From Kiritimatiella glycovorans (GTDB lineage Bacteria; Verrucomicrobiota; Kiritimatiellia; Kiritimatiellales; Kiritimatiellaceae), in assembly GCF_001017655.1 (NCBI RefSeq), contig NZ_CP010904.1, positions 1,710,001-1,742,000 of the forward strand: a stretch of 32,000 nucleotides of DNA. Reading direction: 5' to 3'. Below are positions 3,046-27,757 of this stretch, one piece after another. Position 1 is the stretch's first letter, and every line of letters begins with the position of its first letter. The position numbers and the translations under genes were made by a program. The notes beneath the pieces were generated by a model that ran no database searches, was not told where the DNA came from, and was given only the letters and a program-made list of their open reading frames with translations.

Positions 3046-4314
3046 ATGGACGACCGCTCAGAGACCCCCGCCGCCCCGCCCGCTGATCCTCAGGGATCTG
3101 CCGCGGTCATCGACCGCGGCAGTCATCCGGTGAGCCGCAGGAACATCAGCAGCGCCGCGATCAAGGTGCTCTACAGAATCAAGAACCACGGCCACCTCGC
3201 CTATCTCGCCGGAGGCGGCGTCCGCGATCTGCTTCTCAATCGCACTCCCAAGGATTTCGATATCGCCACCGACGCCACGCCCGAAGAACTGCGCGCCATG
3301 TTCAACAACTCGCGCATCATCGGGCGGCGATTCCGGCTCGTTCATGTGCTCTTCCGCGGGGAGATTATCGAAGTCTCCACCTTCCGCGCGGGGGTCAGGG
3401 CCGAAGACGCCGAACAGCATTCCGACCACGCATTCCGCACCGAGGACGGCGTGATCGTGCGGGATAACGTCTGGGGCACCGCCGCCCAGGACGCCCTGCG
3501 CCGCGACTTCACGGTCAATGCCCTGTTCTATAACATCGCCGATTTTTCGATCATCGATTACGTGGGCGGGCTCGAAGACATCGACCGGCGCACCATCCGC
3601 GTGATCGGCGATCCCACCGATCGCTTCACCGAGGACCCGGTGCGCATGATCCGCGCGATCCGTTTCGCCGCCACACTGGGATTCGATATCGAGGAGACGG
3701 CCCGCCGGTCTATCGGGGAACTTGGAGAAACCATGCAGGCCGCCTCGCCGGCCCGCCTCTACGAAGAGGTCCGCAAACTGTTCCTGTGCGGAAACGGGGA
3801 ACGGGTCTTTGAACTGCTCTCCGAGCTGGATTTCATCGAGCCGCTCTTCCCGGAACTCGGGGAGTGGCTGAAAGATCCCGAGGGCGAAGCGGGCGTACAC
3901 TGGATCCGAAACACGTTCCGCCAGCTCGACCGCTGGGTCGCGGCGGGACTGAAAGTGGATACGCCTCTCATGTTCGCGCTCCTGTTCGGGGCCTACCACG
4001 AACGCCGGGCCGAGACGCTCTGCCGGGAAGAGTCCCTGTCACCCGCCGCCGCGCTTCAGCAGGCGACGCACGATCATATCCTCCAGCTCGGCGAACGGAT
4101 CGCCATCCCGAAAAACGACCGGGCACGGATCGCCCGGATCATGGCCCTTCAGCCGCGTTTCCGTAAAACGACGCCGTCCAGAGTCCATAAGCTGGAACGA
4201 AATCCCCAGTTCCTCGACGCCTGGCTCTATTTCAAATTCGCCGCCAAGACGTTCGACCGCGACGGCAAAGAAGTGACGTTCTGGGAAAAACGCCATCGGG
4301 GGGAAGGGGGATGA
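3046..4314 (+). CDS. pcnB: poly(A) polymerase I / tRNA nucleotidyltransferase family protein (PcnB-like)
   Basis: AYLAGGGVRDLLLNRTPKDFDIAT (GG..RD...DxD nucleotidyltransferase core), RIIGRRFRLVHV and RDFTVNALFYN are typical of PcnB/CCA-adding enzymes. Confidence 0.85.
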   Translation: MDDRSETPAAPPADPQGSAAVIDRGSHPVSRRNISSAAIKVLYRIKNHGHLAYLAGGGVRDLLLNRTPKDFDIATDATPEELRAMFNNSRIIGRRFRLVHVLFRGEIIEVSTFRAGVRAEDAEQHSDHAFRTEDGVIVRDNVWGTAAQDALRRDFTVNALFYNIADFSIIDYVGGLEDIDRRTIRVIGDPTDRFTEDPVRMIRAIRFAATLGFDIEETARRSIGELGETMQAASPARLYEEVRKLFLCGNGERVFELLSELDFIEPLFPELGEWLKDPEGEAGVHWIRNTFRQLDRWVAAGLKVDTPLMFALLFGAYHERRAETLCREESLSPAAALQQATHDHILQLGERIAIPKNDRARIARIMALQPRFRKTTPSRVHKLERNPQFLDAWLYFKFAAKTFDRDGKEVTFWEKRHRGEGG

Positions 4315-4329
4315 GGGGGAGGATTTTGT

Positions 4330-4509
4330 GAGTGAGAAACCTGAAACCTGAGACCTGAGTAAGAGGGGGAGAGGTCTGAGTGAGAAACCTGAAACCTGAG
4401 ACCTGAGTAAGAGGGGGAGAGGTTTGAGTGAGAAACCTGAAACCTGAGACCTGAGTAAGAGGGGGAGAGGTTTGAGTGAGAAACCTGAAACCTGAGACCT
4501 GAGTAAGAG
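4330..4509 (+). repeat. tandem repeat, 3.75 copies of a 48-bp unit (left arm of a large inverted structure)
   Basis: Units lie at 4330-4377, 4378-4425, 4426-4473 and 4474-4509 (truncated). The unit is gagtgagaaacctgaaacctgagacctgagtaagagggggagaggtYt, and only one C/T position differs among copies. Each unit contains three consecutive heptads CCTGARN. Confidence 0.95.
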
Positions 4510-4561
4510 CTGCGGATTCCAAGGCTCACCCGCCTTTTCCCGTCGCAGCTTATGACCCCGC

Positions 4562-4604
4562 TCCTGAGTTCCACATGGGGACACCCGGGGGAATATCGTA
4601 CTCG
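4562..4604 (+). repeat. conserved 43-nt core, copy 1 (TCCTGAGTTCCACATGGGGACACCCGGGGGAATATCGTACTCG)
   Basis: 42/43 identical to 27615-27657 in the same orientation. It is preceded by a 7-bp hairpin (agctgcg 4508-4514 / cgcagct 4544-4550). Confidence 0.9.
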
Positions 4605-4682
4605 AATTATGTTCTCTCTGAATCCCGATTTCGGCTTCGATCCGGATTTCGAGATCCCATCCGCATCATCAAGCTTCCCACT

Positions 4683-4806
4683 CTCTTACTCAGGTTTCAG
4701 GTCTCAGGTTTCCCACTCATAAATCTTACTCAGGTCTCAGGTCTCAGGTTTCCCACTCATAAATCTTTCTCAGGTTTCTCACTCTCTTACTCCGCTTTCC
4801 CACTCA
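4683..4806 (-). repeat. degenerate reverse-complement copies of the 4330-4509 unit (right arm)
   Basis: Copies lie at 4683-4718, 4725-4758 and 4765-4784, plus a partial copy to about 4806, separated by ATAAAT. The reverse complement of 4683-4718 matches the first 36 nt of the left unit at 33/36 positions. Confidence 0.9.
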
Positions 4807-4809
4807 CCG

Positions 4810-5814
4810 TCACCCTCCCCCGCTCAGTTCCCTCATCGTATGCTCAAAGATGAGCCGGTCGCGGCGCGCGAGACGTGCGAGCCGCTCGCTCATGCGCTCC
4901 AGGGTGCGGAGGTGGTGAAGCGCGGTCGAGGGCGTGAGCCGCGAGGCGCCGCGGGCGAGCGCTTCGCGCCGCCCCCCGAAATGCAGGCAGGCGCAGTCGC
5001 CCGCCACGGTGAGCGTCCACAGGTCCCGGACCCAGGAGATCAATTCGGCCAGCACGGCGTTGCGCGCCTCGATCGTCCGGGTGCGGATGCGCGCCTCTAC
5101 CTCCTTGCGGTCCGGCTCTTCCCCCTCTGCCCCGATCTCGCGCTCTACTTCCGCCTCCGCTTCGGCCGCCGCCTCGTCGAGCAGATCGCACACCCGGGAG
5201 GCCAGTCCTTCCGCCTCGAGCGGATTGGAAGGAGGATACGCCTCGAGCAGATCAGCCAGGGACGCGGCGCGCGGATCGGCTTCGACACACCCCCCGCCCG
5301 ACGGCTTGAGCAGCTGGCATCGCGACCGGATGGTCGACAGCAGCGCGCCCGGACGTTCGGCGATCAGGATGAGGAGGGTGTTGTCCGGAGGCTCTTCCAG
5401 GGTCTTGAGAAACTTGTTCTGGGCGGCCGGGTGCAGGCATTCGGCCGAGAGAATGAGCCCCGCCTTCCATCCGCCTTCGTAGGCGGTCCGGGAGATCGGG
5501 GTGAGGACCTGTTCGCGGAGGTCTTCCACCCTGATCTGACGCGACTTGCTTTTCGGCTCGACCCGGTGCACGTCGGGGTGCGCGAGTTCCGCAACCCTGA
5601 CACACGGGCTGCAGACGCCGCAGGGCGGCGAGTCCGCAGTGCAGTAGAGGATCTGAATCATGGACTCGGCCAGACGCAGCGCGGCGCCGCGGGGTGCGCC
5701 GGCGATCAGATAGGCGTGGGCGAGGCGCCCCCGTTCCCGGCTCCGAAGCACGCCCTCCCAGGCCTGATCGTAACCGGCCGTATCCGGTCGGGTCACCTCC
5801 GCCCCCGGGGTCAT
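4810..5814 (-). CDS. holB: DNA polymerase III subunit delta prime
   Basis: HAYLIAGAPRGAA, a CGVCSPC zinc module, LKTLEEPP and STIRSRCQ are delta-prime/clamp-loader motifs. I chose the ATG at 5814, which overlaps the tmk stop (ATGA); an alternative ATG is at 5823. The longer track ORF would overlap tmk extensively. Confidence 0.85.
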   Translation of the reverse strand: MTPGAEVTRPDTAGYDQAWEGVLRSRERGRLAHAYLIAGAPRGAALRLAESMIQILYCTADSPPCGVCSPCVRVAELAHPDVHRVEPKSKSRQIRVEDLREQVLTPISRTAYEGGWKAGLILSAECLHPAAQNKFLKTLEEPPDNTLLILIAERPGALLSTIRSRCQLLKPSGGGCVEADPRAASLADLLEAYPPSNPLEAEGLASRVCDLLDEAAAEAEAEVEREIGAEGEEPDRKEVEARIRTRTIEARNAVLAELISWVRDLWTLTVAGDCACLHFGGRREALARGASRLTPSTALHHLRTLERMSERLARLARRDRLIFEHTMRELSGGG

Positions 5815-6458
5815 GGCAGCCATCCCGTGTCTGAAATTTCCCGCCACAACGTCGCGAACACCTCCTCCGGCGGCGCGGATGCGTCGATGACCCGAAACCG
5901 GCCCGGTTCCCCGCGGGCGAGGTCGAGGTATCCCTCCCGGATGCGGCGGTGGAACTCGATCGGCTCGCGCTCGATCCGGTCCGGCGCGCTCGATCCGTCC
6001 GCGAACAGCGGCTCCAGCCGCGCCATACCGGTCTCCGCCGGCAGATCCAGCAGCAGGGTGAGATCGGGCATCACGCCCGCGACGGCGAACCGGTTCAGTC
6101 CGTCCAGCGCATCGGCAGAGAGTCCGCGCCCCGGACCCTGATAGACGGTGGTGGAATCCAGGTAGCGGTCGCCGACCACCCATTCGCCGCGCTCCAGGGC
6201 GGGTCCGATCACCCGGGCGGCCAGCTGCGCCCGACTGGCGGCGAAGAGCAGCACCTCGCAGCGCGCCGTCATGGCCTCTTCCGTCTCCCGGTGCTGGAGG
6301 AGTTCGCGAATGGCCTCGCCGATCTCCGTCCCGCCCGGTTCGCGCACGTGGCGCACGGTAAGGCCCCGATCCTGAAGCGAAGCGACCAGCCGGCGGGCCT
6401 GCGTGGTCTTACCGCCGCCCTCCGGCCCCTCGAATGTGATGAAGCGACCTGTTTTCAT
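5811..6458 (-). CDS. tmk: thymidylate kinase
   Basis: FITFEGPEGGGKTTQ P-loop and a DRY motif. Length is 215 aa. Confidence 0.95.
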   Translation of the reverse strand: MKTGRFITFEGPEGGGKTTQARRLVASLQDRGLTVRHVREPGGTEIGEAIRELLQHRETEEAMTARCEVLLFAASRAQLAARVIGPALERGEWVVGDRYLDSTTVYQGPGRGLSADALDGLNRFAVAGVMPDLTLLLDLPAETGMARLEPLFADGSSAPDRIEREPIEFHRRIREGYLDLARGEPGRFRVIDASAPPEEVFATLWREISDTGWLP

Positions 6459-6494
6459 GGGCGGGATGAACCGTAGCAGGGAAATGGACCCATG

Positions 6495-7892
6495 TCAGCT
6501 CCGCGTCAGTTTGGGCCCCTCCGGCGTGTCCTTCACGACCCAGCCCCGAGCGGCTAGTTCGTCGCGGATCCGGTCGGCCGCGTCGAAATCGCGCCTCCGG
6601 CGCGCCTCCTGACGCTCGTGCGCCATGCGCTCGATCTCCTCCGGAACCTCCAGCCGGGGCGGCACCAGATAGCCGAACACGGTGTCGAGACGCCGCCAGA
6701 GGTCGAGCACCGCGGCGGCCGCGGACTCGTCCACCTCCCCCGCATCCAGGGCGCGGTTGCCCTCGTGCACGGCATCGAATACGGCCGCCGAGGCGCCCGA
6801 CACGTTCAGATCGTCGTCCATCGCCTCCCGGAACCGCGGCTCGGTATCCCGCGCCCATGCGGGGAGTTCGCCCGGCGACGCGCCCGAGGCCGTCTCCTCC
6901 AGGCGCCGGTAGAATTCATCGAGGCGCCGGAGCGCGCTGCGTCCGGCCTCGAGCGAGCGGAGGGTGAAATTGAGCGACTGGCGATAGTGGGCCGAGGCCA
7001 GTTCGCACCGGATCTCGCGCCCCGAAAAACCCCGGTCGCGCAGGTCGCGCAACGTGAAGAAATTGCCGAGCGACTTCGACATCTTCTTGTCTTCGACCAC
7101 GAGATATCCGCAGTGCATCCAGTAGCGGACGAACGGCTCGCCGGTGGCCGCCTCGCTCTGGGCGGTCTCGTCCTCGTGGTGCGGAAATATGTTGTCTACG
7201 CCGCCGGTATGGATATCCAGCGTAGGCCCGAGGTAGTGCATGCTCATGGCCGAACACTCGATATGCCAGCCCGGCCGGCCGCGTCCCCACGGGGCCTCCC
7301 ACGCCACGTCCCCGTCCTCCGGGGTCCACGCCTTCCAGAGCGCGAAGTCGGCGACGTTCTCCTTCTCGTACTCGTCGTGGGCCACGCGGGCTCCGCTGCG
7401 CATCCCCTCGCGGTCGAGCCGCGCCAGTTTTCCGTACTCCTCGAACCGGTCGATGCTGAAATAAATCGAGCCGTCCTCGGCGCGGTACGCGTAGCCCTTA
7501 TCCATGAGCGTCTGCACGAGATCGATCATGTCCTGCACGTGATCGGTGGCGGCGGGATAGAACTCCGCCGGCTCGACGTTGAGGGTGTGCAGGTCTTCGA
7601 AAAAGGCGTCGATGTAGGGCTTTGTGTACTCCTTCAGCGGGACGCCTTTTTCGCGCGCGCCGCGGATGGTTTTGTCGTCGACGTCCGTCAGGTTCTGCAC
7701 CTGGATGACCCGGTAGCCGAGGTAGCGGAGGTAGCGGCGCAACAGGTCCTCGAAGACATACGCGCGAAAATTGCCGATGTGGGCAAAGTCGTAGACCGTG
7801 GGGCCGCAGGTGTACATGCGCACCACGCCCTCTTCAAGGGGCTCGAAGGCCTCCCTGCTCCGGGACATCGTGTTGTACAGCCGGAGGGTCAT
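6495..7892 (-). CDS. cysS: cysteine--tRNA ligase
   Basis: [16 protein letters not shown] (HIGH region) and KMSKSLGN (KMSKS). The start is the internal ATG at 7892 (MTLRLYNT...), which overlaps the clpX stop (ATGA). The 138 upstream codons of the track ORF lie inside clpX. Confidence 0.95.
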
Positions 7893-9145
7893 GCCGACTT
7901 TCGCTCGCCGGATGCGCCGTCGAGCGGATTGGACCGCCCTTCCACGACATCGCCGTCGATGACGATCCGTTCGAGATCCTCGCGGGAGGGGGCCTCGTAC
8001 ATCAGATCGAGCATCAGGTGTTCGAGAATCGCGCGCAGCCCGCGCGCGCCGGTGTTGCGCCGTATGGCCTGGCGCGCGAGGGCGTGCAGGCCGTCCTCCG
8101 AGAACTCCAGATCGATGTGGTCCATCTCGAGAAGGTGCTGGTACTGGCGCGTCATGGCGTTGCGGGGCTCGGTCAGGATGCGGACCAGCTCCTCTTCGCG
8201 CAGCGGATGCAGGAGCGTGGTCACGGGGATGCGGCCGACGAACTCGGGGATCAGGCCGTACTTGATCAGGTCTTCCGGTTCGATGCGCATACTGGCCGGT
8301 TTCCACGCGCCGTCCGCGGACGCGCCGGACGTGAATCCGATGCTCCGGTCCTGGCTGCGGCGACGAATGATGTCGTCGATCCCGACAAACGCACCGCCGC
8401 AGATGAACAGGATGTTGGTCGTGTCGAGCTTGATGTACTCCTGGTGGGGATGCTTGCGCCCGCCCTTGGGCGGGATGCGGGCGGTCGTGCCCTCGAGCAT
8501 CTTCAGCAGCGCCTGCTGGACGCCCTCGCCGGACACATCGCGCGTGATCGAGACGTTCTCGGTGCGGCGGCCGATCTTATCGATTTCGTCGATGTAGATG
8601 ATGCCGCGCTGGGCGCGCTCCGCGTTGTAATCGGCCGCCTGCAGCAGCGTCAGCAGGATATTCTCGACGTCCTCGCCGACGTACCCGGCCTCCGTGAGCG
8701 TGGTGGCGTCGGTGACCGCGTAGGGCACGTCGAGCACGTTGGCCAGCGTGCGCGCGAGCAGGGTCTTGCCGCAGCCGGTGGGACCGGCGAGCAGGATGTT
8801 GCTCTTCTCGAGTTCGACCCCGTCGCCTCCGCGCCTGCGCTGGAGCATCCGCTTGTAGTGGTTGTGGACGGCCACGGAGAGCACCCGCTTGGCCTCTTCC
8901 TGGCCGACGACATATTCGTCGAGCGCGGCCTTGATTTCCTGCGGCTTCATTAGGGAGAAGGCGTCCTTCTGCTCCGTTCCTTCCCCTCCCTCTCCCGGTT
9001 CCGCGGCCTGTTCATTCTGCAGTACGGCCTCGCACAGTTCGACACAGTCGCTGCAGATGAATACGCCCGGACCGGCGATAAGTCGGTCCACTTCCTCTTC
9101 GCCCTTTCCGCAGAAAGAGCAGCGTGTCGGCTTGTCTTCGGTCAT
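7889..9145 (-). CDS. clpX: ATP-dependent Clp protease ATP-binding subunit ClpX
   Basis: N-terminal zinc finger CSFCGK...CSDCV, Walker A GPTGCGKT and Walker [10 protein letters not shown]. Confidence 0.97.
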
Positions 9146-9166
9146 TCGGACCTCCCGGGACCCGGC

Positions 9167-9775
9167 TTACGCCGAGCCCGTCTTGGCTTCGATCACCTCG
9201 TCGACCAGCCCGTAGTCGACCGACTCGGTGGCGGACATGAAGAAATCGCGATCGGTGTCTTTGGCCACCCGCTCCACGTCCTGTCCGCTGTGATGCGAAA
9301 TGATCTCGTTGAGCCGGTCTTTCATGCGCATGATCTCGCGGGCCTGGATGTGCACATCCTGGGCCTGCCCCTGCGCCCCTCCGATGGGCTGGTGAATCAT
9401 GATGCGCGCGTTGGGCAGCGCGTACCGCTTCCCCTTCGTGCCCGCCGCGAGCAGCAGGGCGCCCATGCTGGCGGCCTGGCCCACACAGTAGGTGGTGATG
9501 TCGCACTTGACGAACTGCATCGTATCGTAGATCGCCAGTCCGGCCGTGACCGCCCCGCCGGGCGAATTGATGTAAAGCTGGATGTCCTTTTCGGCGTCCT
9601 CGCTCTGCAGAAACAGCATCTGCGCCACGACGAGGTTGCTGACCGCGTCGTCCACGGGGGTGCCGAGAAAGATGATGCGCTCCTTCAGCAGCCGCGAATA
9701 GATGTCGTAGGCGCGTTCGCCGCGCCCCGTCTGTTCCACCACCATGGGAATGAGCATCTGAGCCCGCTCGTCCAT
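9167..9775 (-). CDS. clpP: ATP-dependent Clp protease proteolytic subunit
   Basis: [20 protein letters not shown] (active-site Ser) and MIHQP (His). I chose the ATG at 9775 (MDERAQ...), just downstream of the tig stop at 9786. Confidence 0.95.
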
Positions 9776-22180: not shown

Positions 22181-23362
22181 TTACCCCAGCCTCGACTTGT
22201 AGTCTTCATACGTGAACTCACGCAGCATCACGATCCGCCCGTCGCGGCGGACGGCGATCGACGGATGGCGCACGCCGTTGAAAAACGTGGTCTTGACCAT
22301 CGTGTAGTGGGCCATGTCCTCGAACGCCAGCCGGTCTCCGACGCGCAGCGGTCGCGGGAACGCGTAGTCGCCGATCACGTCGCCGGCGAGGCAGCTGTGG
22401 CCCGCCAGCCGCACGGCATGCCGCCCTTCCCTTCCGCCGCGCGGGTCGTCGGCGCCGGGAAAACTTCCGCCGCGTTCCATCAGCGCCACGCGGGGCCTGT
22501 ACGGCATCTCGAGTACGTCCGGCATGTGGCAGGTACAGGAGATATCGAGCACCGCGACCTCGCGGTTCCCCGCGGAAATCACATCCAGCACCGTGCAGAG
22601 CAGCACGCCGGCATGGAGCACAACGGCCTCGCCCGGCTCGAGAATAACCTCCACGCCGTAGAGGTCGCGGGCGCGGTCGATCAGCCGGCAGAGCAGATCG
22701 ACATCGTAATCCCCGCGTGTAATGTGGTGTCCGCCGCCGAGGTTGAGCCAGCGCATCGCGGGCAGTATATCGGCGAATTTCCCGTGCAGGGCGTCCAGCG
22801 TGACCTCAAGCGCCTCCGCGCCCTGTTCACAGAGCGTATGCATGTGCAGCCCGTCTATCTCGCCAAAATCCATCCCTTCACACTGCGAGCGCCTGAGACC
22901 GAGGTGCGAGTCCGGACGGCAGGGATCGTAGAGGGCGTGTCCGGGCGGCTGGGTGGAGTGTTCGGGATTGACGCGCAAACCGTAACTCACCGCGCTTCCC
23001 GCCCGGCGGGCGGGTCTTGCGAAGCGCTCCCACTGCGACCGCGAATTGAAGCTGATCGCGTCGCAGTACTTCTCCAGCTCGCGGAATCCCGCGTCATCAC
23101 AGGCGGGACCGTAGGCGTGGACATAGCCGCCGAATTCCTCGCGTCCGAGTCGCGCCTCCCAGGGTGAACTGACGCAGACTCCGTCGAGATACGCGCGCAT
23201 CTGCGGGAAGAGTCGCCACAGCGCGAACGCCTTGAGCGCGAGCAGGATCCGGCAGCCGGTGCGCTCCCTGACCGCCGCCAGCGTCCTCAGATTCGCGCGC
23301 AGCCGATCCTCGTCCACGATGTACAGCGGTGATATAGGGCGTTGATTCGTCATCGTCTCCAT
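22181..23362 (-). CDS. nspC: carboxynorspermidine/carboxyspermidine decarboxylase
   Basis: ILLALKAF (PLP-Lys region), FGGYVHAYGP and AISFNS resemble Vibrio NspC as I recall it. The start is the ATG at 23362 or 23353, and neither has a strong Shine-Dalgarno. The track N-terminal extension runs into the repeat region. Confidence 0.85.
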   Translation of the reverse strand: METMTNQRPISPLYIVDEDRLRANLRTLAAVRERTGCRILLALKAFALWRLFPQMRAYLDGVCVSSPWEARLGREEFGGYVHAYGPACDDAGFRELEKYCDAISFNSRSQWERFARPARRAGSAVSYGLRVNPEHSTQPPGHALYDPCRPDSHLGLRRSQCEGMDFGEIDGLHMHTLCEQGAEALEVTLDALHGKFADILPAMRWLNLGGGHHITRGDYDVDLLCRLIDRARDLYGVEVILEPGEAVVLHAGVLLCTVLDVISAGNREVAVLDISCTCHMPDVLEMPYRPRVALMERGGSFPGADDPRGGREGRHAVRLAGHSCLAGDVIGDYAFPRPLRVGDRLAFEDMAHYTMVKTTFFNGVRHPSIAVRRDGRIVMLREFTYEDYKSRLG

Positions 23363-23576
23363 GAGCCACGAAAAAAGCACAGGGGCAGCAAGAAAAGAAG
23401 TGCCACAAAGAAGCACAAGAAATACAGAAGAAGCCACAAAAAAGCACAAGACGCACAGAAGATCCCACAGAAGAAGCCACTTATTTCACAGCCGGAAAAG
23501 GCACCTCTCTTCTGTGTCTCCTGTGCCTTTTTGTGGCCGTTTTTCTCATTCCCCTCTTCTGTGCCCTTTTGCGGCC
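23363..23576. repeat. intra-operon spacer made of roughly 33-bp purine-rich units in direct and inverted orientation (long imperfect hairpin)
   Basis: Plus-strand units of the type GCCACAAAAAAGCACAAG..CACAGAAGA begin near 23364, 23400 and 23433. Reverse-complement units lie at 23509-23537 and 23551-23574. Segment 23433-23461 matches the reverse complement of 23509-23537 at 25/29 positions. Confidence 0.85.
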
Positions 23577-24779
23577 TCAGGGGAGCGGTTCGGCCCCTTC
23601 CTGCACCGTCCACGGCAACCCGTACTTTTCGAGATCCGCCATGAACGGGTCGGGGTCGAACTGTTCCATATTGAACACCCCTTCGCCGCGCCAGGTCCCT
23701 TCGATCATCTGTTTCGCGCCCACCATCGCCGGAACCCCGGTGGTATACGAGATCGCCTGGGCGCGCACTTCGCGGTAGCACTGCTGGTGATCGCAGATGT
23801 TGTAGATGTAGCAGGTGCGCGGCTCGCCGTCTTTGATCCCGCTGACGATGCATCCGATACAGGTTTTGCCCCGGGTTTCGGGTCCGAGCGAAGCCGGTTC
23901 CGGCAGCACGGCCTTGAGGAACTGGAGCGGAACGATCTGCTGTCCCCGATAGTCCACGGGATCGATGCGCGTCATACCCACATTCTGCAGGACCTCGAGA
24001 TGTTTGAGATACGCATCCGAAAAGCTCATCCAGAACCGCGCGCGCTGCAGCCCCGGGACATGTTTCACCAGGGACTCGAGTTCCTCGTGATACATGAGAT
24101 AGATATTCATTCCGCCCAGCTCCTCCGGGAGGTCAAACGACCGGCGGACCGAGAGCGGGTCGGTCTCTCTCCACTGCCCGTTTTCCCAGTAGCAACCTTT
24201 CGCGGTGACTTCGCGGATATTGATCTCCGGGTTGAAGTTGGTAGCGAACGGCTGGTTGTGGGCTCCCGCGTTGCAGTCGACGATATCGATCGCGTGCAGC
24301 TCGTCGAAGTAATGCTTGCGGAGGTACATGCAGAACACGCTCGTCACGCCCGGATCAAACCCCGATCCCAGCAGGGCCATCAGGCCGGCCTTGCGAAATG
24401 CTTCGTCGTAGGCCCACTGCCAGGAATACTCGAATTTTGCGGTGTCGCGGGGCTCGTAGTTCGCGGTGTCGAGGTAATCGACCCCGCACTGCAGGCACGC
24501 ATCCATGATCGCCAGGTCCTGGTACGGGAGGGCCAGGTTCATGACCAGCGACGGCCGGTGGCGGCGGATCAGCTCGACGAGTTCGGGCCCGTGCTCCGCA
24601 TCGACCTCCGCCGTCGTGACGGGGCGGGGCAGTTGCGCCGCGACCGCCTCGCATTTTTCGCGCGTGCGGCTGGCGAGGACGAGGTCTCCGAACACCTCCG
24701 GGTGCGCCGCGACTTTATGCGCGGCCACCCCGCCGACCCCGCCGGCTCCGATCATCAACACCCCGGATTTATCTCTCAT
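23577..24779 (-). CDS. carboxynorspermidine/carboxyspermidine dehydrogenase (saccharopine dehydrogenase family)
   Basis: VLMIGAGGVGGVAAHK Rossmann N-terminus, GFDPGVTSVF, ATNFNPEIN, AISYTTGVPA and VFNMEQFDPDPF match the CANSDH family as I recall it. Confidence 0.85.
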   Translation of the reverse strand: MRDKSGVLMIGAGGVGGVAAHKVAAHPEVFGDLVLASRTREKCEAVAAQLPRPVTTAEVDAEHGPELVELIRRHRPSLVMNLALPYQDLAIMDACLQCGVDYLDTANYEPRDTAKFEYSWQWAYDEAFRKAGLMALLGSGFDPGVTSVFCMYLRKHYFDELHAIDIVDCNAGAHNQPFATNFNPEINIREVTAKGCYWENGQWRETDPLSVRRSFDLPEELGGMNIYLMYHEELESLVKHVPGLQRARFWMSFSDAYLKHLEVLQNVGMTRIDPVDYRGQQIVPLQFLKAVLPEPASLGPETRGKTCIGCIVSGIKDGEPRTCYIYNICDHQQCYREVRAQAISYTTGVPAMVGAKQMIEGTWRGEGVFNMEQFDPDPFMADLEKYGLPWTVQEGAEPLP

Positions 24780-27479: not shown

Positions 27480-27495
27480 GATGCGACTCCTTTAC

Positions 27496-27556
27496 TGTGC
27501 GCACACTGTAGCAGAACCGGGAACCGGATGGGAATGAGCGCACGCCCCGGTTCTGC
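27496..27556 (-). promoter_or_regulatory. palindrome plus 11-bp perfect stem in the leader/promoter of the SDR-speA operon
   Basis: A 10-bp perfect palindrome TGTGCGCACA lies at 27496-27505, flanked by ACTGT on both sides and 17 nt upstream of the SDR ATG. The stem gcagaaccggg (27511-27521) pairs with cccggttctgc (27546-27556) around a 24-nt loop. Confidence 0.4.
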
Positions 27557-27614
27557 GAGCCTCTTGCACCCCCCGCAGCGCGGCGCCTGACGGCTTGCGT
27601 CGCGGGGCGTTTTG

Positions 27615-27657
27615 TCCTGAGTTCAACATGGGGACACCCGGGGGAATATCGTACTCG
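27615..27657 (+). repeat. conserved 43-nt core, copy 2 (TCCTGAGTTCAACATGGGGACACCCGGGGGAATATCGTACTCG)
   Basis: 42/43 identical to 4562-4604 in the same orientation. It is preceded by a GC hairpin (ccccgc 27571-27576 / gcgggg 27602-27607). Confidence 0.9.
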
Positions 27658-27757
27658 TACTCGTACTCAGCGAAGGGGTACTCGTACTCAAATTCCTTGA
27701 ATCGGGGGATGGGATCGCGCCTTCGGCGCTCCGAGTACGCGTACCGAGTACGAGTAC
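27651..27757 (+). repeat. inverted hexamer-repeat hairpin (GTACTC x5 facing GAGTAC x3 plus a partial copy)
   Basis: GTACTC occurs at 27651, 27657, 27663, 27678 and 27684. GAGTAC occurs at 27733, 27746 and 27752. Segment 27677-27689 pairs with 27733-27745 at 12/13 positions, and 27651-27668 can pair with 27746-27757 over 12 bp. The apical part contains a small GC stem with a CUUCG loop (27717-27729). Confidence 0.9.

Follow-up and report, generated by a model that had tools for sequence, protein, structure and literature searches.

An oversized higher-order heptad-repeat hairpin between the converging pcnB and holB genes of Kiritimatiella glycovorans

Introduction

The whole 495-bp gap between the converging genes pcnB and holB of Kiritimatiella glycovorans is an imperfect hairpin of tandem CCTGARA heptads. 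The sequence studied is a single 32-kb window of this bacterium, and positions are those of the window unless another contig is named. It is well supported that the spacer is an oversized, higher-order heptad-repeat hairpin, in which an array of CTGA-containing 7-mers faces an array of their complement and the two fill the intergenic gap. The reading that we put first, tentatively and at somewhat less than an even chance, is that this hairpin grew by slippage and that, if functional, it serves at the RNA level as an end or processing structure for both of the converging operons. An earlier note on this DNA had described an inverted tandem-repeat array that fills the spacer and abuts both stop codons, and this is confirmed by Tandem Repeats Finder (TRF), by a search for inverted arms and by where the open reading frames (ORFs) end.

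Heptanucleotide repeats are reported as the commonest long simple repeats of prokaryotes, yet their function is almost unstudied. Here, arrays of one heptad family (CCTGANA) are found to be strongly over-represented against scrambled controls of the same composition, to be paired in one third of the cases listed and, across many unrelated organisms, to lie flush with the ends of genes and between tRNA genes. As a cultured and sequenced strain with an extreme example beside well-known genes, K. glycovorans opens the question to experiment. Hairpins that delimit transcripts or serve as sites of processing would amount to operon punctuation of a new type, in phyla with few canonical terminators. 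Inert ones would instead provide a clean model for the way in which slippage and template switching build large, tolerated palindromes.

Anatomy of the repeat arms

The left arm consists of one degenerate unit, three full 48-bp units (4329-4376, 4377-4424 and 4425-4472) and a partial unit of 37 nt. The full units are mutually 99-100% identical, with a single C/T difference. Each is made of a 36-nt module (TGAGTGAG AAACCTG AAACCTG AGACCTG AGTAAGA) followed by the tail GGGGGAGAGGTY. The arm is purine-rich, and TGA or TAA is present in all three of its frames. The earlier note had read units of 48 bp in both arms; this length holds on the left, whereas the right arm is built of two 40-bp units (4684-4723 and 4724-4763) and two 21-bp units (4764-4784 and 4785-4805). 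Read on the minus strand, the 40-bp unit is TTTA plus the 36-nt module, and the 21-nt units are shortened modules. The consensus of the module over both arms is TGAGTGRG AAACCTG ARACCTG ARACCTG AGTAAGA, with between-arm identities of 33/36 and 34/36.

Inside every unit, a period of 7 nt repeated 3.3 times is detected by TRF. The 36-nt module amounts to five heptads, and the heptads CCTGAAA and CCTGAGA contain CTGA. As the units of 48, 40 and 21 nt are all near multiples of 7, the whole structure can be described as hierarchical heptads. Matches to CCTGANACCTGA occur 12 times in the window against a chance expectation of 0.29, and all of them are inside the pcnB-holB spacer; the heptad matches lie at 4340-4502 on the plus strand and at 4690-4748 on the minus strand.

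The arrays adjoin the stop codons of both pcnB (4312-4314) and holB (4810-4812). It was also observed that pcnB closes with codons (…GGGGAAGGGGGATGAGGGGGAGG) similar to the G-rich tail of the 48-bp unit (4281-4328), that a repeat search places 4281-4365 as a 62%-identical copy in an 85-nt repeat family, and that the holB reading frame is closed by the reverse complement of a GGGGAAGGGGGATGAGGGGGAGG-type motif. The hairpin may have grown out of, or into, the coding ends of the two genes.

Two other identities for the arms were rejected. A CRISPR array does not fit, as the units are contiguous head to tail and have no spacers between them. Protein-coding repeats do not fit either, since the GC content at third codon positions of ORFs in the spacer is 0.47-0.60, against 0.73-0.87 in the genes of the window.

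Folding of the spacer

Both strands of 4300-4825 were folded with RNAfold, giving -257.5 kcal/mol (z = -10.3) for the plus strand and -267.7 kcal/mol (z = -11.3) for the minus strand, and none of 100 shuffles folded as well as the spacer. The stem of more than 100 bp in many registers that the earlier note had anticipated is thus borne out. The minimum-free-energy structure of the plus strand has 115 inter-arm pairs, with a longest unbroken helix of 20 bp, and the inverted arms match over 58 nt at 81% and over 40 nt at 93% complementarity, with many alternative registers. The final codons and the stop codon of pcnB fall within the outermost stem.

The structure is, as had been claimed, far larger than an ordinary terminator. 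Neither a hairpin followed by a T-run nor a short GC-rich stem-loop with a U-tract is present in 4315-4809 on either strand, and a canonical intrinsic terminator was rejected on this ground; terminator-like sites over the whole window are at chance level. Rfam 15 gave no match in the window at gathering thresholds, and raising E to 10 added just chance-level matches to eukaryotic long non-coding RNAs.

Table 1. Features of the spacer, its flanking genes and related arrays (positions in the 32-kb window)
Feature	Position	Strand	Details
Left arm	4313..4509	+	48-bp unit, 4.1 copies, 95% matches (TRF)
Right arm	4683..4805	-	TRF: 40 bp x 2.3 at 4684-4775 (96%), 21 bp x 2.0 at 4764-4805
Outer G-rich stem segment GGGGAAGGGGGATGAGGGGGAGG	4300..4322	+	Pairs with 4808-4821 in minimum-free-energy structures; outermost pair 4300-4821
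Outer C-rich stem segment CCGTCACCCTCCCCCGCTC	4808..4825		Pairs with 4300-4322; overlaps holB stop and last codons
Small local hairpin AGCTGCG ... CGCAGCT	4508..4550		29-nt loop; in minimum-free-energy folds of both strands
43-nt core	4562..4604	+	Second copy at 27615-27657, same strand, 42/43 identity
Unique right half of centre	4605..4682	+	Local hairpin GAATCCCGATTTCGG...CCGGATTTCGAGATCC; no tRNA, no Rfam match, no coding signal
pcnB, poly(A) polymerase	3046..4314	+	Pfam PolyA_pol, PolyA_pol_RNAbd, PolyA_pol_arg_C; closes DUF4186-pcnB pair
holB ORF, DNA polymerase III delta-prime	4810..6183	-	Pfam DNA_pol3_delta2 at residues 142-293; closes clpX-cysS-tmk-holB run
tmk	5811-6458	-	Minus-strand run with holB (Pfam)
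cysS, longest ORF	6495-8306	-	603 aa; minus-strand run with holB; Pfam domain from residue 154
clpX	7889-9145	-	Minus-strand run with holB (Pfam)
Third low-complexity inverted array	23345..23576	-	Units such as GCCACAAAGAAGCACAAGA and CACAGAAGA; TRF, inverted pairs; -94.7 kcal/mol, z = -4.5
Second core copy with (GTACTC)n ... (GAGTAC)n hairpin	27615..27757	+	Hairpin 27651-27757; fold z = -4.5

Heptad-repeat hairpins in other genomes

A scan of metagenomes for (CCTGARA)n of at least 3.7 units found arrays in at least 120 unrelated contigs, 80 of which were fetched (GC 0.30-0.69). Among the matches listed, to which the figures of this paragraph refer, an inverted partner array lies within 300 nt in 36 of 108 array clusters, and arrays are typically 0-30 nt from an ORF boundary, either a start or an end. 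The pairs stand between co-directional genes in 12 cases, converging genes in nine and diverging genes in five. The complement arm comes first in all 12 co-directional cases, and the arm order of K. glycovorans is seen in five converging-gene hairpins (contigs L094, L099 and L141, and two in L149). Loops in this class are mostly just 4-40 nt long, and neither the 43-nt core from the centre of the spacer nor the 48-bp unit occurs in the fetched heptad-array contigs.

Among about 37 pairs examined, the K. glycovorans locus is the largest and the only higher-order case. A generic dispersed repeat, which the earlier note took as an argument against its own reading, is seen at the level of the heptad, across organisms; it is not seen for the 48-bp unit, which was found nowhere else in the collections scanned. 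Other heptads build matched hairpins in the same contigs (ACRTGAG in L149, TGCTGAG in L094 and GCTGAAA in L128), and it is the architecture, with arms that match each other, that recurs. In viral contigs (L201-L226), CCTGARA arrays are present in 19 contigs, while the counts for four control heptads, scrambled but of equal composition, are 0, 2, 4 and 1, which makes the CCTGARA arrays about 10-fold commoner. These viral counts, with four controls only, suggest together with TAACTGA of Beggiatoaceae and MTYCTGA of Geobacter that CTGA-containing heptads are a favoured family.

Two orthologous contigs, L093 (700-920) and L140 (4380-4600), are 78% identical and keep both arms nearly intact around a loop that cannot be aligned; the copy number of the 5' arm differs between them by about three heptads. 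Where these arms vary, the antisense strand shows G-U pairs and the sense strand A-C mismatches. Another contig, L157, carries 31 tRNA genes in a row on one strand (4134-9284), and many of them are separated by CCTGANA/TNTCAGG hairpins (6620-9380), some with loops of only 4 nt. As these hairpins lie between tRNA genes, translation cannot be their target there.

In the loci fetched from Kiritimatiellales, Nitrospirota and Geobacter, the DNA between genes often contains tandem heptads. A Pontiella metagenome-assembled genome (MAG) has (CCTGAAA)6.4 between two genes which we read as exbB/exbD-like. Arrays that directly follow stop codons in Pontiella and related MAGs include CAGTTAG x 10, AGGTTTT/AGGTGTT x 7, AGGCACC x 4 and GTAATRC x 9, the sites being L010 3990-4120 and 7674-7756, and L026 7013-7150. 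In the same group, CTTAAAA- and CCTAAAA-type heptads are found just upstream of a start codon and, in L026, also upstream of a sequence that matches the conserved GGAAAGTCCGG core of RNase P RNA.

Flanking genes and synteny

The PcnB protein of the window is 100% identical to K. glycovorans PcnB, the next-best relatives being at about 60%. Each of pcnB and holB is the last gene of a run, DUF4186-pcnB (plus strand) and clpX-cysS-tmk-holB (minus strand), and the 495-bp spacer is therefore where both runs end. The longest ORFs of holB (457 aa) and cysS overlap their upstream genes, tmk and clpX, respectively. Because of its overlap with tmk, the start of holB is placed near 5800, which is probably the true position, some 130-140 codons inside the ORF; the same probably applies to cysS, and the run of four genes would be tightly packed.

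For comparison, 80 loci of relatives, about 43 of them from Kiritimatiellales, were fetched by a PcnB scan (1.1 Mb in all). The order DUF4186-pcnB is conserved in them. None of the 80, however, has holB, tmk or cysS downstream of pcnB, and the pcnB-holB spacer is thus a synteny breakpoint. No inverted repeat comparable to that of K. glycovorans was found in the 1.1 Mb of pcnB loci. In the closest clade, the gene order is tRNA-Leu, DUF4186, pcnB, tRNA-Ser(GCU). A short low-complexity sequence lies directly 3' of the pcnB stop codon in the closest relatives L001 and L009, and in L001 it is (TGGAATA)n...(ATTCCA)n. The fold behind this stop codon has z = -2.7 in L001 and is not significant in L009; the sequence of the latter opens with the same heptad.

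A different block, CTTGTG...N...(G)ATACATTTTTGTA, is conserved in Pontiella-type relatives (L010, L011, L014, L023, L025, L027, L030, L031, L034, L036, L038 and L039) at about 20-90 nt past the pcnB stop codon and upstream of the next gene. It is closer to the Bacteroidetes-type -33/-7 promoter (TTG ... TAnnTTTG) than to the sigma-70 consensus.

The unique centre and its core

Between the arms lies a centre of 173 bp of unique sequence, which holds the 43-nt core. An exact 25-mer of the core occurs twice in the window, against 0 expected. The layout of the core is promoter-like and points towards holB: TTCCAC (4569-4574), a 16-nt spacer, GAATAT (4591-4596) and then CGTAC. In the relatives, a conserved block of the form TTGYCR-N16-GAATATCATACA (promoter form TTGYCR-N16-GAATATCATAC) is situated directly after pcnB and about 20 nt upstream of tRNA-Ser. 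The core of K. glycovorans reads TTC[C/A]AC-N16-GAATATCGTAC, at the same relative place and on the same strand as that block. The pattern TTNNNN-N16-GAATATCRTAC is common to the core and the block, which is conserved in nine relatives, and six of these each have exactly one copy of the 11-mer GAATATCRTAC itself, in every case between pcnB and tRNA-Ser. In genomes of the closest clade, tRNA-Leu has the promoter TTGACT-N17-TTAATA; as this is a textbook form, sigma-70-type promoters can be taken to apply in the lineage. On moderate evidence, the core is taken for a promoter cassette, most probably of the sigma-70 type and akin to the tRNA-Ser promoter located behind pcnB in the relatives.

Apart from GAATATCRTAC, nothing stands out between the centre and the spacers of the relatives, as local alignments stay within the shuffled range. 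A decayed tRNA-Ser gene or an integration scar in the centre was rejected, since ARAGORN finds no gene and the tRNA-Ser alignments are at chance level (p = 0.6 at this locus, and 0.05 before correction at the locus of the second core copy). Exact 22-mer scans for the core in genome, metagenome and viral collections, in which the K. glycovorans genome is not included, gave no match.

Other inverted arrays in the window

Besides its one CCTGARA pair, the 32 kb holds two further intergenic hairpins that are built from other units. One of them accompanies the second copy of the core, 480 nt upstream of, and on the same strand as, an operon of an MFS_2 transporter and a sulfatase (Pfam). A (GTACTC)n array starts here within the 3' end of the core (27651-27668), and the slippage of any sequence at hand is therefore plausible in general. 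This growth from the core also speaks for local seeding. The derivation of the CCTGARA arms from the core, as the earlier note had it, is nevertheless not upheld: the second core copy has no CCTGARA arrays, the heptad arrays of at least 120 metagenome contigs and 19 viral contigs come without any core, and chance alone gives a 7-mer in common with the arms in 23% of shuffled cores (near a core end in 4.5%). A terminator-like hairpin with a T-run, CCCCGC...GCGGGG CGTTTTGT, precedes the second core on the plus strand (27571-27612), with no plus-strand gene upstream of it; a small plus-strand RNA may be encoded in 27480-27610.

The third array, of about 230 bp and without a core, fills the spacer between two co-directional genes of the saccharopine-dehydrogenase and Orn/DAP-decarboxylase families (Pfam), in our reading CANSDH (23577-24779) and CANSDC (about 22181-23332), both polyamine genes. 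The array stops shortly before the GGAGA ribosome-binding site that belongs to the downstream gene.

Origin and possible function

The anatomy of the arms suggests a course of growth in three steps. Heptads would have arisen by replication slippage, and neighbouring heptads would then have diverged into the 36-nt module. This module would next have been inverted and duplicated, after which slippage or unequal exchange of whole units, 48 bp on the left and 40 or 21 bp on the right, would have enlarged the arms. The left arm appears to have expanded most recently, and the earlier proposal of its recent expansion by slippage agrees with the near-identity of its units and with the composition of the 48-, 40- and 21-bp units, all of which are strings of heptads.

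A role at the RNA level, in ending or processing the transcripts, is preferred because the spacer has no ordinary terminator and both operons end in it. A read-through transcript from either side would fold into the hairpin, with about 115 inter-arm pairs beginning at its own stop codon. Such a hairpin could mark the end of the transcript by slowing or stopping RNA polymerase and by blocking 3' exonucleases, could present long double-stranded RNA to RNase III, and would insulate DUF4186-pcnB and clpX-cysS-tmk-holB from each other. The putative promoter cassette of the core was probably enclosed by the hairpin at the break of synteny. That the role is a constrained or RNA-level one is hinted at by the arms kept in L093 and L140, by the hairpins that space tRNA genes, by the hairpin behind pcnB in relatives and by the missing hairpin-plus-T-run.

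Several points weigh against this reading. No U-tract follows the hairpin on either strand. The arms are unequal (197 vs 123 nt), and in the minimum-free-energy structure roughly half of the left arm has no partner in the right one; therefore, perfect pairing is not maintained. Heptad hairpins between co-directional genes often finish 2-30 nt before the next start codon, so that these cannot be full terminators. G-U pairs tolerated on the transcribed strand only would mark RNA-level selection, but among 19 hairpins of known transcription direction the sense strand folds more stably in eight and the antisense strand in 11. The conservation of the L093/L140 arms could be the outcome of continual homogenisation by slippage and not of selection, and recent slippage of a neutral kind would explain just as well why the left units are nearly identical. 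As for the core, it does not pass a generic-consensus sigma-70 scan, and its 16-nt spacer is identical in both copies, which gives it the look of a cassette that was copied, more than that of a promoter under conservation. For termination and processing as for promoter activity, the roles given here are predictions from the sequence.

The strong rival, possible but not probable in our judgement, is a neutral or selfish by-product: slippage would expand the heptads, template switching would make the inverted copy, the 173-bp centre would render the repeat tolerable, and no function would be involved. The single base by which the left units differ speaks for a very recent expansion, and the unequal, poorly length-matched arms, the lack of a detectable strand asymmetry, the differing copy number of the L093/L140 orthologues and the location at a synteny breakpoint are all in keeping with it. 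Heptanucleotide repeats have, moreover, been reported to be the commonest long simple repeats of prokaryotes, with polymerase slippage as the assigned cause (Mrazek 2007, summarised in PMC4679880). It is harder to reconcile with the roughly 10-fold excess of CCTGARA arrays over scrambled heptads of the same composition, and with the inverted partner found for one third of the arrays among the matches listed, far above chance. Arms that are conserved around a randomised loop in 78%-identical orthologues, and a regular placement flush with stop and start codons and between tRNA genes, also argue against this rival.

The remaining explanations lose likelihood in the order of a DNA-level protein-binding element, a mobile element and, last, an assembly artefact. 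In the first of these, which we think quite unlikely, the arms would bind a nucleoid-associated or regulatory protein and so bracket and control the core, as in parC, or would form a cruciform or slipped-DNA barrier. The arrays do flank a promoter-like core, the two strands fold about equally well with no preference for the sense strand, and the heptad pairs of Geobacter are annotated as putative sites of a global regulator or of IHF/HU (PMC2700814). Most hairpins of the class, however, have loops of 4-40 nt, which leave no room for a promoter, and no candidate binding protein is encoded beside the locus. Extrusion of a cruciform is, in general, strongly disfavoured by a spacer of 173 bp between the arms. 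A non-autonomous, MITE- or REPIN-like mobile element, with the core as cargo and the arms as terminal inverted repeats, would account for two copies of the core that lie 23 kb from each other and agree at 42/43 positions, with sharp boundaries, and for the inverted arms at both loci. Yet the arms of the two loci are unrelated (CCTGARA heptads vs GTACTC hexads) and at the second locus both are to the same side of the core; a direct duplication of a target site cannot be seen, the flanks outside being complementary to each other, and no transposase is encoded nearby. Neither core nor 48-bp unit was found in the three public collections scanned or in those fetched loci that were checked by BLAST, and we regard such an element as very unlikely. 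An artefact in the form of a collapsed, expanded or chimeric palindrome, a concern raised in the earlier note, is hardly credible. Tandem and inverted repeats do trouble assemblers, and PacBio SMRTbell libraries can yield palindromic chimeras. PacBio RSII reads at 265x, however, gave the genome as one circular contig, and 2 x 150 MiSeq reads served to check it (PMC5148204). The arms are also imperfect and differ in unit length, unlike those of a fold-back chimera, pcnB and holB are intact up to their stop codons, and hairpins of the same design occur in many independent assemblies.

Going beyond the preferred RNA-level role, it is conceivable, if unlikely, that CTGA heptad hairpins are a punctuation shared across phyla and read by a conserved factor, for instance RNase III or some other protein that recognises CTGA/UCAG, which would cut or end transcripts in the gaps between genes and between tRNAs. 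K. glycovorans would then show an extreme form that has engulfed an active promoter, and pcnB or holB read-through that folds the hairpin would switch the core promoter, or its antisense transcript over holB, on or off.

Comparison with known systems

Bidirectional intrinsic terminators are similar to the spacer in lying between two stop codons and in offering a hairpin that both transcripts can use. Canonical ones have GC-rich stems of 7-20 bp and U-tracts on both sides, whereas K. glycovorans has about 115 pairs over 495 bp, a 173-nt loop and no U-tract. Plasmid centromeres of the R1 parC kind have a core promoter set between iteron arrays, and the spacer likewise has repeat arrays on both sides of a promoter-like core. 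The parC iterons, however, are direct and are bound by the product of the adjacent parR, while the K. glycovorans arrays are inverted and chromosomal, with no partition genes nearby. It is known that REP hairpins shield the mRNA upstream of them against 3' exonucleases, and the REP/BIME/REPIN elements of Proteobacteria are, like the spacer, extragenic, hairpin-forming and often situated at operon ends. REPINs are inverted doublets that form hairpins (PMC3116915). REPs are fixed palindromes of about 20-40 nt in hundreds of copies with a RAYT transposase; K. glycovorans has tandem heptads in locus-specific arms and no RAYT nearby.

Intergenic tandem arrays of heptanucleotides, among which the cyanobacterial STRR heptamers are also grouped, share with the spacer their attribution to slippage and their scatter across phyla. 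Heptanucleotide units were found to be the commonest long simple repeats in most prokaryotic genomes and were ascribed to polymerase slippage (Mrazek et al. 2007, summarised in PMC4679880). As summarised there, these repeats are direct arrays of other heptad sequences, described with no inverted pairing and no amplification of modules. The TAACTGA direct repeats of marine Beggiatoaceae, Cyanobacteria and Bacteroidetes lie just upstream of start codons, and a post-transcriptional role has been proposed for them (MacGregor 2015, PMC4679880). Like the K. glycovorans arrays, they are CTGA-containing tandem heptads that are intergenic and flush with gene boundaries. They differ in forming sets of 2-6 copies before starts, 169 of them direct and one indirect, whereas the K. 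glycovorans arrays are paired and follow converging stop codons.

Full-text searches with sequence strings retrieved no description of bacterial repeat hairpins of the CCTGAAA/TCTCAGG type or of higher-order versions, the matches being primers and unrelated eukaryotic work only. In Geobacter metallireducens, eight annotated pairs of (YCTGAMT)5 stand on opposite strands with the consensus MTYCTGA (Gmet_I301-I308; Aklujkar et al. 2009, PMC2700814). They were named 'class 3 predicted global regulator binding sites', with binding of IHF/HU offered as a guess (PMC2700814). As in K. glycovorans, they are intergenic tandem heptads that contain CTGA, and a second array lies on the opposite strand, in Geobacter about 80-110 bp away. 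In the Geobacter pairs the complement array comes first and each arm holds about five heptads; they possess neither a higher-order unit nor a promoter-like core. The K. glycovorans locus, in contrast, is about five times larger and has super-units of 48, 40 and 21 bp. It is an extreme variant: the kind of element is already known, and the higher-order form is new.

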